Shown piece after piece: positions 11,488-13,425 of a DNA stretch of 25,062 nucleotides. This stretch comes from a virus (Duplodnaviria > Heunggongvirae > Uroviricota > Caudoviricetes): the IMG/VR virus record IMGVR_UViG_2703718822_000004; one strand, given 5' to 3'. Each line of letters begins with the position of its first letter. The first letter of the stretch is position 1. Made by a program: the position numbers and the translations under genes. Below the pieces are notes generated by a model. It did not search any database, had not been told where the DNA came from, and was given only the letters and a program-made list of their open reading frames with translations.

Positions 11488-13425
11488 TCAGCCGCCGGAC
11501 GCACTGCCATAGTTCACTCCGGTGATCACCGCCACCGCCGCGGTACGGCGACGACGCCAGTTGATCCAGCGCTCCGCACGGATGGCCACGCTGCCTGTCT
11601 GGAACATGGAAACCAGCTCCACCGGCGACGGCGTGGTACTGTCGCCGGTCGGCTCAGACTGCATTTCCAGTGATGCCTCGCGGGACATATCCACTGCCAC
11701 GCCGCCGTCATCCGCCAGATAAATATCCGGGGCATTCACCAGCACCAGCTGATCACCCACGTACTGGGAGACAATCACCGGCAGCCCCTGGAAGGAGCCA
11801 CCCAGCAGGGTCATGTCCGGGTATTCTTTCTGACCCAGCGCATTTTTACGCATGGACAGCGCCAGAGCATTGGTGCTGGACATCAGCCAGACCGCACCGG
11901 TGGGCTGCAGGTTTGCTGCCACAAACTGTCCAAACGCCGCCTCTGCATCCGCATCCGGGTTACCGCTTGATGCCGTGCCCTTCACATCATGGGTGATGGA
12001 CGCCGGGGAGACATCTGCCACCGCCGCTTTTTTCGGGTCCACAAAGTCTGTATCCAGACGCGCCACCACCGCTTCCGCCAGCGCATTACGGACCAGTGCA
12101 TCAGCAGCCGGACTGGAAAAACGGATCAATTCTTCCGTCAGTACCGCAATGGCCGACACCTTCGCATGACTGAAGGTGATGGATTCAAAATCAAACTTCG
12201 TCAGGGGTTTTGCCTTACCCTCCCCCACCCAGCCGGCAGCACCGCCCGACACCTGGGCGTGCACACGGATATTGAACGGCACCTGACGAAGTGCAGGGAT
12301 CCCGCCCTGACCAAATCGCCCGATAATGGTCTGAGGACGCAGGTAATCAATAAAGTCCTGTGCGTATTCCTGATATTCAGACAGGCTGCCTGCCCACTGC
12401 GGATCCGTGGTGGTCCCCGCGCCCACTGCCGATTTCAGGACATGATGCAGACGACTGTCATCCGGATACTGACGACGGGCCACTTCCAGGGCTTCAGAGC
12501 GGACACCTTTAGCCGCAGCCAGCGATTTGGCAAAACGTGCGAAACCAATCCCCTTATCCAGTTTCTGCTCCACACGGATCACCGGCGCAGAAGCCACCGC
12601 GGCCACATTCCCGTTACCGGCCTGTTTCACCGGCTGCGCCGTGGCGGCCTTACCGGCTTCCAGTTCACGCAGGCGCTTCAGGTGCGCATCCACCTGACGT
12701 ATTTCCGCTGCGGTGTTGTCGTAATGCTCTTCCTCCTCCACATCCAGCGTGCGCCCTTCCTCTGCGGCTTTGGTCATGACCTCCTCAAGGGAGGCTGCCA
12801 GTGCTGCACGCTTGTTTTCAAAACTTTTAATCTGTTCGCCAATATTCATTATGGTCTTTTCCTTATGAAAAACGGTTGTTGACTGTGCCGCAGCGCCGGC
12901 AGAAGATGCGATTTTCACCACCGGTTTCCGGTTGCCGGACGCGGCAGAAAACTGGCGGTCGTAAGATTTAATGGTCCGGATGGTGCATTCCGCATTCGCG
13001 GGCACGGTGACGGCAGACACCTCCATCAGCTCCCAGCGCAGAAAATGCAGTCCGCCTCCGTCCAGAAAGGTGTATTCATGAGGACGGAAGCCCACGGACA
13101 GCCCCCTGACCAGCCCGGTCTTAATGGCCGCCCAGGCCTCATCCAGCCTGGCAGCCAGTTGCGATGGCATATCCGGCACGGGCTTCGCCAGTGTTGCCGT
13201 GATTTCCAGCCCTTCGCTGACCCGGCGCACCGTACACTGCCCCACCGGGCGGGAATGGTCATGCTGCCAGAGAAACGGGATCGCACTGCCAAACTCCGCG
13301 CCCTCCGGCTCCAGGATGTCACCATCCCGATCCGGAGAAGGCGTTGACGCAATCCCGGTGATCACCCGCTCATCCTCACTGAAGGATTTCACCGTCAGCA
13401 GGGAGCAGGCCCGTTTAAGAGTCAC
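11488..13425 (-). CDS. Prohead protease (HK97 gp4-like, N-terminal ~190 aa) in frame with HK97-fold major capsid protein including delta domain
   Basis: Single 645-aa ORF with no internal stop. N-terminus VITGIASTPSPDRDGDILEPEGA...LSVGF...ELMEVSAVTVPANAECTI matches the HK97 prohead protease signature; from internal Met 193 (ATG 12847-12849, preceded by AAGGAAAAG) a coiled-coil delta-like segment and capsid domain follow. Confidence 0.85.
   Translation of the reverse strand: MTLKRACSLLTVKSFSEDERVITGIASTPSPDRDGDILEPEGAEFGSAIPFLWQHDHSRPVGQCTVRRVSEGLEITATLAKPVPDMPSQLAARLDEAWAAIKTGLVRGLSVGFRPHEYTFLDGGGLHFLRWELMEVSAVTVPANAECTIRTIKSYDRQFSAASGNRKPVVKIASSAGAAAQSTTVFHKEKTIMNIGEQIKSFENKRAALAASLEEVMTKAAEEGRTLDVEEEEHYDNTAAEIRQVDAHLKRLRELEAGKAATAQPVKQAGNGNVAAVASAPVIRVEQKLDKGIGFARFAKSLAAAKGVRSEALEVARRQYPDDSRLHHVLKSAVGAGTTTDPQWAGSLSEYQEYAQDFIDYLRPQTIIGRFGQGGIPALRQVPFNIRVHAQVSGGAAGWVGEGKAKPLTKFDFESITFSHAKVSAIAVLTEELIRFSSPAADALVRNALAEAVVARLDTDFVDPKKAAVADVSPASITHDVKGTASSGNPDADAEAAFGQFVAANLQPTGAVWLMSSTNALALSMRKNALGQKEYPDMTLLGGSFQGLPVIVSQYVGDQLVLVNAPDIYLADDGGVAVDMSREASLEMQSEPTGDSTTPSPVELVSMFQTGSVAIRAERWINWRRRRTAAVAVITGVNYGSASGG

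Follow-up and report, generated by a model that had tools for sequence, protein, structure and literature searches.

Phage HK97 has one gene for its protease and another for its major capsid protein, arranged terL, portal, protease, capsid, and work by Duda and colleagues in 2013 reportedly showed that the HK97 protease is targeted by its own C-terminal region. HK97 gp4/gp5 have the same Peptidase_S78 family, capsid fold and N-terminal helical delta domain, replacing a scaffolding protein, as the gene product described here; in contrast to HK97, the genes are here fused in frame and lie before the portal gene. Lambda and HSV-1 are established cases of nested protease and scaffold genes, and ribosome profiling has added HFTV1 gp17/gp17.5 (bioRxiv 10.64898/2026.09.13.751334). 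In lambda C/Nu3, HSV-1 UL26/UL26.5 and HFTV1 gp17/gp17.5, a shorter product arises from an in-frame internal start at a domain boundary, so that a minority of the assembly-competent parts bring an attached protease into the procapsid. The proteases of these three systems are of other families than that of the polyprotein described here, in which a single nested chain would comprise both scaffold domain and capsid protein; the likeness to lambda C and to herpesvirus assemblin is an analogy of design, not family membership.

Single-gene designs are also described among tailed phages. Gifsy-2 encodes protease, scaffold-like middle and HK97-fold capsid protein in one gene (PMC12315714, citing Effantin et al. 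2010), and MD8-like Pseudomonas phages have protease, scaffold and capsid protein in a single gene (PMC8508860); both carry a lambda-C/ClpP-like protease and a longer scaffold, whereas the protease here is of the S78 type, and they are not detectably of the same family. The scaffold-protease fusion of phage Bas13 (CBASS preprint) likewise falls outside this polyprotein family.

Much closer are the Stx1/Stx2 phages 2851, YYZ-2008, JLK-2012 and the WGPS series, together with BP-4795, which match the whole 2.1-kb query at 97-99.7% DNA identity (99.4-99.7% for the gene in BP-4795 and Stx1 phages). BP-4795 and the Stx phages have the same neighbours (terS, terL, a 73-aa ORF, portal and head-tail genes), and their records annotate one CDS without an internal start. 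In BP-4795 this is ORF56 (99% identical), 'putative major head protein/prohead protease'; some Stx-phage records give only 'major capsid protein', 'phage prohead protease' or 'capsid and scaffold'. Pseudomonas phage PAJU2 encodes ORF003, a full-length homologue (48% identical across residues 1-642) annotated 'prohead protease fused capsid protein', in the order terminase, polyprotein, small ORFs, portal, as here; it has an internal Met197 with a perfect AGGAGG 7 nt upstream, but PAJU2 differs in host and in the rest of its genome (a D3-like Detrevirus). ORF003 is listed as a capsid polyprotein (UniProt P85500) in PMC8306868, whose description cites self-cleavage of the fusion, as proposed by Uchiyama et al. 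2009, but not nested translation. The fusion and the gene order, pointed out in an earlier note on this DNA, are thus already known: they are the standing annotation of Stx-converting phages, in BP-4795 and many others, and are annotated in PAJU2. No description of an internal start of this polyprotein was found in the literature searched, to which access was limited.

Here, we describe the capsid polyprotein gene in a window of 25,062 nucleotides (the whole stretch of DNA that was analysed; IMG/VR record IMGVR_UViG_2703718822_000004; Table 1). Its product is the polyprotein of a large, conserved siphophage head-module lineage, and we consider it quite likely that the gene is translated from two in-frame starts, with tethered-protease assembly. 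Members of the lineage are the Stx phages BP-4795, 2851 and YYZ-2008, PAJU2 and many gamma-, beta- and alpha-proteobacterial prophages. The polyprotein shows collinear, full-length homology in one frame to BP-4795 ORF56, PAJU2 ORF003 and PHROG 617, the last covering residues 1-639 (E = 2e-261).

Table 1. Features of the capsid polyprotein locus, with positions in the window
Feature	Position	Strand	Remarks
Capsid polyprotein gene	11488..13425	(-)	645 codons + stop, GTG start; predicted product 69.0 kDa
Shine-Dalgarno (SD) of first (GTG) start, AGGAGG	13431..13436	(-)	5-nt spacer; anti-SD dG -10.3 kcal/mol
Prohead serine protease domain, S78/HK97 gp4 family	12991..13407	(-)	About residues 7-145; pLDDT 68-87
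Disordered hypervariable linker	12850..12990	(-)	Residues 146-192; pLDDT < 50 for 146-191
Internal SD-like UAAGGA	12860..12865	(-)	10-nt spacer to ATG193; in frame (Hi)s-Lys-Glu
Internal in-frame ATG, Met193	12847..12849	(-)	Proposed start of delta-capsid protein, 453 aa, 48.2 kDa
Delta (scaffold-like) domain	12631..12849	(-)	Residues 193 to about 265, two long helices
HK97-fold major capsid domain	11491..12558	(-)	About residues 290-645; 37.7 kDa if cut near residue 290
Large terminase gene, directly upstream	13489..15150	(-)	Pfam TerL_ATPase + TerL_nuclease
73-aa ORF between capsid and portal genes	11222..11443	(-)	PHROG 829; 'hypothetical' in BP-4795 and RefSeq
Portal gene, downstream of capsid gene	9912..11276	(-)	Pfam Phage_portal, E = 1.7e-81

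From N to C terminus, the polyprotein consists of an S78/HK97-gp4-type protease, a disordered linker, a helical delta domain and an HK97-fold capsid domain, in a single uninterrupted 645-aa frame that opens at the GTG at 13425-13423 (ORF listing). This architecture had been proposed from the letters of the DNA in the earlier note and was confirmed by Pfam, AlphaFold2 and Foldseek. Peptidase_S78 (PF04586; MEROPS S78, formerly U35) matched residues 48-153 (34.1 bits against a cut-off of 21) and PHROG 80, 'head maturation protease', matched at E = 2e-42, while no ClpP or S49 match was found in the Pfam scan (E <= 0.01). His55 (WQHD) and Ser110 (GLSVGF; GLSxGF in the family) are invariant in 42 sequences of 36-78% identity and, from motif context, are probably the counterparts of the HK97 gp4 catalytic residues. 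The linker shows low conservation and indels in alignments of relatives; small conserved motifs within it (AASG; AGA[TA]A or PGxSG) could be cleavage or targeting sites. Delta helices were modelled at residues 195-223 and 229-261 (pLDDT 83-89), followed by a second disordered stretch (267-285), and the delta domain matched, in a profile search, residues 4-67 at the N-terminus of the major head protein of cf-PICI EcCI2 (9gyi_B). Among ten neighbouring ORFs, the Pfam scan found no scaffolding family, and we infer that the delta domain serves scaffolding. Phage_capsid (PF05065) covered residues 386-635 (52.5 bits against a cut-off of 24.2), and a profile search matched the capsid domain to PDB capsid proteins at E = 2.5e-19; a single-sequence PDB search with the polyprotein was nearly empty (best E 0.0017). 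Foldseek was queried with the whole polyprotein model and returned only capsids, the capsid body (about residues 290-640) resembling those of HK97, Bxb1, D3 and T5 (E from 1e-15 to 1e-10; target-normalised TM-scores of at most 0.76). The AlphaFold2 model was built from a 42-sequence alignment (mean pLDDT 76.7); an earlier run from a shallow 20-sequence alignment (mean pLDDT 41) was discarded.

The order terS, terL, polyprotein, 73-aa ORF, portal was verified with Pfam in the window, in agreement with the earlier note, and all distant loci in which the genes could be detected keep terL, polyprotein, portal; PAJU2 and Burkholderia phage vB_SBP9 share the order terL, polyprotein/capsid, portal. 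This order is unusual, yet conserved across the whole lineage. The prophage in the window may be truncated in the tail region. A capsid-forming PICI satellite, suggested by the compact head module, was rejected, since the window goes on with tape-measure and tail-tube genes and the element has complete Stx phages among its matches. A repeat can be seen at the protein level in the 299-aa ORF that lies downstream of the portal gene, although Tandem Repeats Finder reported none.

The fusion is common, ancient and widespread. The gene was found in 1,252 of 5,426 complete E. coli genomes, and the 645-codon ORF is intact (at least 80% coverage) in 1,246 of them and in 92 phage records; the latter include Stx-converting phages deposited as complete phage genomes, which we take to be inducible. 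Beyond these, 1,199 representatives of 50%-identity clusters matched the polyprotein at E <= 1e-30, and the best 150 of the 1,199 are nearly all 630-680 aa long with full-length matches. A first scan of viral contigs yielded only relatives of 96-100% identity, and a rescan led by a distant representative gave a diverse set. The protease-capsid frame is unbroken in 81 of 87 loci analysed (37-77% identity), a fraction biased upwards by retrieval with fused queries and drawn from phylogenetically related loci.

Met193, which the earlier note had singled out together with an RBS-like sequence, sits exactly at the linker/delta boundary, and the SD-like sequence is there. In the window the SD is moderate (dG -6.2 kcal/mol, 15th percentile of in-frame positions in its own ORF), and SD-like strings stronger than UAAGGA exist elsewhere in the gene; the case therefore draws its strength from conservation in relatives. 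The junction nevertheless stands out from what chance would give, and the surrounding mRNA is predicted to be open: folding of a 60-nt stretch around Met193 yields -5.8 kcal/mol, the mean for the gene being -18.3 +/- 5.1, the region is the 8th least structured of 622 in-frame positions, and the lowest-GC 30-nt windows of the whole gene lie at the junction (23-27% versus 60%). Met217 was considered as an alternative start (GAGGAGG before it, dG -11.6) and rejected, the spacer being only 2-3 nt and the region structured (-18.4 kcal/mol).

An in-frame ATG or GTG lies 1-5 codons before a conserved T-I-A-E-Q-I motif in all 87 loci. Met193 is invariant in 20 relatives of 73-78% identity, and among 151 alignment rows (the query and the 150 best 50%-cluster representatives) position 193 is M in 124 and V in 10. 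Anti-SD pairing of dG <= -5 kcal/mol was found at the boundary start in 89% of the 84 scored loci and at 18% of 2,639 other in-frame ATG/GTG codons; in the same 84 loci, dG <= -7 was reached by 52% of boundary starts versus 2.5%, and dG <= -10 by 30% versus 0.6% of all in-frame positions. The enrichment was unchanged for 56 clusters at 70% identity, and the internal SD is as strong as that of the first start (median dG -7.0 and -5.8, respectively). Aligned SD spacing is 4-7 nt in 60 of the 84 loci, GC falls by 0.18 in the first 20 nt past the internal start, and local folding is -10.9 kcal/mol against -18.3 for the control (weaker in 99% of loci; Wilcoxon p = 2e-15).

The CATAAGGAAAAG core of the internal SD is identical in 80 of 80 close relatives while its flanks vary, and Enterobacterales relatives of 70-77% identity have AAAGGA or AAGGGA as internal SD. 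In three of these Enterobacterales relatives the GGA of the SD is the sole GGA among 44-46 Gly codons, and across relatives the encoded residues vary (KG, KE, QEG, PEEG) while the SD persists. Constraint on the protein, for instance at a cleavage site or at the N-terminal end of the delta helix, could partly account for conservation of the Met and of K/E-G.

Viable relatives in which the two genes are separate exist, cultured phages included. In vB_SBP9, stop and SD overlap (TAAGGA), the frame is the same, and the capsid protein starts at the homologous Met; Stenotrophomonas phage SOVA965 and four further loci (L130, L156, L009 and L148, the last reading TAAATG) are also unfused, the capsid gene beginning at the homologous Met with the same SD. 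Five stand-alone capsid proteins (P0201, P0231, P0254, P0258 and P0269) begin at query residues 193-196, and unfused and fused relatives are little more than one stop codon apart. The earlier note had advised a search for relatives with a stop between the domains and had taken such a stop as evidence against its reading. Such relatives were found, but they support rather than refute an internal start, since their capsid genes start at the same Met.

Taken on this comparative evidence, the most likely reading is that the gene would give two nested products of 69 and 48 kDa, analogous to lambda C/Nu3. Synthesis of the capsid protein in two forms, fused and free, which the earlier note had raised as a possibility from one sequence, gains strong comparative support from the start codon, SD, AT-rich island, rare Gly codon and unfused relatives. 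One late mRNA would carry two in-frame starts: the GTG at 13425 would give the 69-kDa protease-delta-capsid fusion, and the ATG at 12849 (Met193), set in an AT-rich, unstructured island and preceded by a conserved SD of its own, the 48-kDa delta-capsid protein. By way of the delta and capsid parts that they share, the two would assemble together on the portal, and some of the subunits would bring a protease, held by a covalent tether, into the interior of the procapsid; the tether would take the place of the C-terminal tail by which free HK97-type proteases are targeted. Once assembly is complete, the protease would cut away linker, delta domain and itself, and a capsid protein of about 38 kDa would be left; the delta cleavage site is predicted between residues 262 and 290.

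In sum we hold it probable, as one joint reading, that the internal SD/ATG supplies free delta-capsid protein and the upstream start a minority of tethered subunits, the ratio of initiation setting the protease dose per procapsid; that the principle of lambda C/Nu3 and UL26/UL26.5 is thereby extended from scaffold to capsid protein; and that fused and unfused states interconvert via a single stop codon. Ribosomes that initiated upstream could, while elongating, block access to the internal site. The 'stoichiometric' delivery of protease that the earlier note expected of a fusion sits awkwardly with dual expression: if the internal start is used, the protease would be sub-stoichiometric, in a ratio set by the two initiation rates and not 1:1.

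The principal alternative to nested translation is a single 69-kDa product, in which every subunit brings its own self-cleaving protease and the internal SD/ATG is either a remnant inherited from a once separate capsid gene or negligibly used. It would fit an ORF that is uninterrupted in thousands of genomes, the moderate SD of the window and the self-cleavage reportedly proposed for the fused PAJU2 protein (PMC8306868). By a rough volume estimate, about 415 copies of the 31-kDa internal part also fit a T=7 procapsid, and therefore no physical argument forces a second product. A useless remnant, however, should decay in a hypervariable, indel-rich linker, where the start codon has been kept in every locus; among proteins about 40% identical the SD persists, optimally spaced, despite residue changes and with rare-codon choice, and the mRNA around the internal start is kept AT-rich and unstructured. 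We regard a single product as unlikely.

SD-like sequences within coding regions have been proposed to slow ribosomes, an effect that is disputed, and the motif lies at the very end of a disordered linker between two folded units, where a programmed elongation pause would let the protease fold before the delta domain emerges, with no initiation. A pause needs neither a start codon 4-7 nt downstream, nor an AT-rich unstructured island, nor conservation of ATG/GTG, and the same motif occupies the RBS position of the capsid gene in unfused relatives, which makes this explanation very improbable. That the fusion is an artefact or product of decay, a sequencing error or defective-prophage mutation having removed the stop between two genes, is refuted for practical purposes: the small difference from unfused relatives and the possible tail truncation of the prophage would suit it, but the ORF is intact in the E. 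coli genomes and phage records counted above, the PAJU2 homologue is annotated as a structural protein and the fusion persists in relatives of about 40% identity.

Should the nested start prove true, a gene that about one-quarter of complete E. coli genomes carry, together with its relatives in more than a thousand protein clusters, would have to be annotated as two products and not one CDS. Virion proteomics and capsid engineering would be affected as well, and expression constructs that open at the first start codon may yield the two products in a wrong ratio. Two nested products would also explain how the maturation protease is dosed without a separate targeting signal, and the fused and unfused relatives would form a natural series for comparing covalent tethering with non-covalent targeting of capsid proteases.

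As the earlier note had read it, protease and capsid domains share one uninterrupted reading frame (the capsid polyprotein gene), on which the ORF listing, Pfam, PHROG, and AlphaFold2/Foldseek agree. Its first start is a GTG with AGGAGG five bases 5′. Peptidase_S78 (residues 48 to 153) and Phage_capsid (residues 386 to 635) both score above the curated Pfam thresholds, residues 1 to 639 match PHROG 617 (a 626-position "major head protein" family; E = 2e-261), and a profile of 42 homologues of the polyprotein matched solved capsid proteins (E = 2.5e-19). The alignment of these 42 homologues was the input for an AlphaFold2 model (mean pLDDT, 76.7), in which the capsid body resembles the HK97, Bxb1, D3, and T5 capsids (Foldseek; TM-score normalised to target, ≤0.76). 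His55 and Ser110 of the protease domain do not vary even in the most divergent sequences compared (36% identity). The internal ATG (Met193) falls where the disordered linker ends, two residues ahead of the first helix of the scaffold-like delta domain, and the RBS-like sequence reported there was found as UAAGGA, ten bases upstream.

Features of the capsid polyprotein and of other genes and sites in the window
Feature	Location	Strand	Basis
Capsid polyprotein ORF, 645 codons	11488-13425	minus	ORF listing
Protease domain, beta-rich	residues ~7-145		AlphaFold2 model
Disordered linker	residues 146-191		AlphaFold2 model
Two long helices	residues 195-223 and 229-261		AlphaFold2 model
Second disordered stretch	residues 267-285		AlphaFold2 model
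Capsid body	residues ~290-640		AlphaFold2 model
ATG of Met193	12849-12847	minus	
UAAGGA	12865-12860	minus	
Met217 site	12775-12790	minus	
Terminator-like hairpin	13447-13464	minus	
73-aa ORF	11222-11443	minus	
Portal gene	9912-11276	minus	
299-aa ORF	9016-9915	minus	
TonB C-terminal-domain protein, 113 aa	16739-17080	minus	
SASA-family sialate O-acetylesterase, 654 aa	20242-22206	minus	
Tape measure gene	2783-6025		
113-aa ORF of tail module	2449-2790		
Porin_1 family porin	1096-2250		

The gene is almost certainly the capsid polyprotein gene of the BP-4795 type. The region is 99.4 to 99.7% identical to Stx1 phages BP-4795 (ORF56, "putative major head protein/prohead protease") and Stx1_121427 and 97 to 98% identical to phages 2851, YYZ-2008, JLK-2012, and many further Stx-converting phages. 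It was found in 1,252 of 5,426 complete Escherichia coli genomes (≤7 copies per genome), with 73 to 78% identical homologues, every one 643 to 650 aa long, in Salmonella, Enterobacter, Klebsiella, Serratia, Kosakonia, and Pantoea. When 1.84 billion cluster representatives were searched exhaustively with HMMER, 1,199 matched at E ≤ 1e-30; of the best 150, nearly all align end to end and measure 630 to 680 aa. Cultured Pseudomonas phage PAJU2 carries a full-length homologue (ORF003, 48% identity) annotated as "structural protein; prohead protease fused capsid protein." Given this distribution and the BP-4795 annotation, the fusion is neither a peculiarity of the window nor an error.

Upstream lie HNH, terS, and terL genes (Pfam), and downstream lie a 73-aa ORF, the portal gene, a 299-aa ORF, and genes for a gp6-like connector, a head completion protein, and a gp10-like protein. 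The order terL, protease/capsid, portal, singled out by the earlier note, holds in the window and in every distant locus with these genes detectable by tblastn, where terL and the capsid gene never had a portal gene between them; it is shared by PAJU2 and Burkholderia phage vB_SBP9. Across these loci the unusual order is a stable signature of the head-module lineage, not a local rearrangement.

The conserved 73-aa ORF (PHROG 829) sits between capsid and portal genes and extends 55 nt past the annotated portal start; in PAJU2 and vB_SBP9 this position is likewise taken by one or two small ORFs. The 299-aa ORF and the portal stop share 4 nt (ATGA). Two PHROG "portal protein" families, of 859 and 331 positions, match the ORF with their C-terminal parts, and it holds a protein-level repeat of ~46 aa (MVKEAVSHIPVPRDGRDYDP...). 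Its counterpart follows the portal gene in most distant relatives, is 461 aa in BP-4795, and in strain 2014C-3307 is annotated by RefSeq together with the portal as a single "frameshifted" portal pseudogene; it may be a separate gene or a fusion or frameshift product. The stretch from the terL stop to the polyprotein gene's AGGAGG holds a terminator-like hairpin (GGACCGCTGCGGCGGTTT, then a T-run), which is oddly placed there, midway through a late operon. The hairpin is retained in close relatives with a varying loop; one hairpin-like site in the scanned region is no excess over shuffles.

Elsewhere, the TonB-domain gene lies between lysis and packaging genes, and Stx phages typically carry an acetylesterase of this kind (NanS-p type); the window contains no stx genes. 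The tail module stops after the tape measure gene and a 113-aa ORF, beyond which is the porin gene. In the near-identical prophage of strain 2014C-3307, the genes that come next are instead those for minor tail protein L, a C40 peptidase, a tail assembly protein, and gpJ. The window's prophage may be truncated or rearranged.

Because the internal start was the sole part of the finding for which no description was found, it was tested comparatively in 87 loci (37 to 77% protein identity to the window). An in-frame ATG (mostly) or GTG stands one to five codons ahead of T-I-A-E-Q-I, the conserved motif opening the delta domain, in all 87. In an alignment of the query and the 150 best cluster representatives, the Met193 column holds M in 124 of 151 rows and V in 10, and the 30 preceding columns are hypervariable and gap-rich. 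Shine-Dalgarno (SD) sites were scored by anti-SD pairing energy in 84 loci: pairing was ≤−5 kcal/mol at 89% of junction starts versus 18% of 2,639 other in-frame ATG/GTG codons, ≤−7 at 52% versus 2.5%, and ≤−10 at 30% versus 0.6% of all in-frame positions. These percentages were unchanged after loci were collapsed to 56 clusters (70% identity). Many members have a perfect AGGAGG, e.g., PAJU2 (cccAGGAGGgcaacgacATG) and Chelatococcus locus L008 (cgAAGGAGGgcagagacATG), and the internal SD is at least as strong as that of the first start in the same genes (median, −7.0 versus −5.8). Aligned spacing is 4 to 7 nt in 60 of 84 loci, GC content drops by 0.18 over the 20 nt 3′ of the start, and folding of positions −30 to +30 is weaker than at control positions (−10.9 versus −18.3 kcal/mol) in 99% of loci (Wilcoxon P = 2e-15). 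The SD is retained though the encoded residues differ (K-G, K-E, Q-E-G, and P-E-E-G); its Gly codon is always GGA in Enterobacterales relatives, in three of which it is the sole GGA among 44 to 46 Gly codons, and the core CATAAGGAAAAG is invariant in 80 close relatives with varying flanks on both sides. Such patterns point to selection on the nucleotides of the junction SD.

The window's own SD is moderate, at −6.2 kcal/mol and the 15th percentile within its ORF. No part of the gene is richer in AT than the junction (23 to 27% GC versus 60%), which also ranks among the eight of 622 in-frame positions with the least structure. A stronger SD-like GAGGAGG (−11.6 kcal/mol) stands directly 5′ of Met217, which falls within the first delta helix; given a spacer of just 2 to 3 nt and a structured region, this string is probably a by-product of Leu-Glu-Glu-Val codons. 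In an Arsenophonus endosymbiont (L007, 4001-5928), the homologous gene is split into several frames, evidently a decaying prophage gene, and aaAAGGAAagtcagATG is still present at the junction.

Relatives with a stop between the domains, which the earlier note would have counted against its reading, do exist, yet they favour the internal start. An in-frame stop separates the domains in L130/L132/L135, L148 (aagTAAATG), and L156, the genes are in different frames in L009, and cultured phages vB_SBP9 and SOVA965 have them annotated separately. In each of these, the Met at which the capsid gene begins is the homologous one, and so is the SD ahead of it, so that fused and unfused states are one stop codon apart; in vB_SBP9 (tacTAAGGAttacgtATG) the stop codon forms part of the SD. 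Among the best 150 of 1,199 representatives, five are capsid proteins that stand alone and start at query residues 193 to 196. The translation initiation region is preserved in both states, and independent initiation at the junction demonstrably suffices for viable phages of the lineage.

Nested translation from the internal start is therefore a probable reading, and the suggestion that capsid protein is made both fused and alone gains support in substance from the conserved start, SD, spacing, open mRNA, and unfused relatives. One mRNA would yield a 69.0-kDa protease-linker-delta-capsid protein (GTG 13425) and a 48.2-kDa delta-capsid protein (ATG 12849). The assembly-competent part is common to both, so co-assembly would be expected; the long form would bring a tethered protease into the procapsid, the tether replacing a non-covalent targeting signal, and after assembly the protease would cut off the linker, the delta domain, and itself. 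What the analysis shows is the architecture and the conservation; that the internal start is used, and the product ratio, co-assembly, and cleavage sites, are what we infer here. A single self-cleaving polyprotein with a vestigial internal RBS is unlikely, since a mere vestige should have lost its optimal spacing, open structure, and choice of a rare codon in a linker that is otherwise hypervariable among ~40%-identity proteins. According to a later paper (PMC8306868), which calls the PAJU2 protein a capsid polyprotein (UniProt P85500), autocatalytic cleavage was proposed for it in 2009. That the junction SD is a translational pause site is very improbable, as it leaves the start codon and the unfused relatives unexplained. 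An artefact or pseudogene is excluded by the gene's distribution.

The gene and its fusion are already known from the BP-4795 and PAJU2 annotations, and fusion and gene order are ordinary. Analogous three-part genes are described for Gifsy-2 (PMC12315714, citing Effantin 2010) and MD8-like phages (PMC8508860), with a lambda-C/ClpP-like protease in contrast to Peptidase_S78. The internal start is unmentioned in the descriptions consulted (for PAJU2 and Gifsy-2, secondary papers), and earlier priority is possible. The proposed nested design is that of lambda C/Nu3 and HSV-1 UL26/UL26.5, recently demonstrated by ribosome profiling for gp17/gp17.5 of archaeal virus HFTV1 (bioRxiv 10.64898/2026.09.13.751334); unlike in these, the proposed nested product includes the capsid protein. 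As a hypothesis, the internal start is well supported and cheap to test, and nested expression inside a fusion, if true, would be a new form of the known nested protease/scaffold design.
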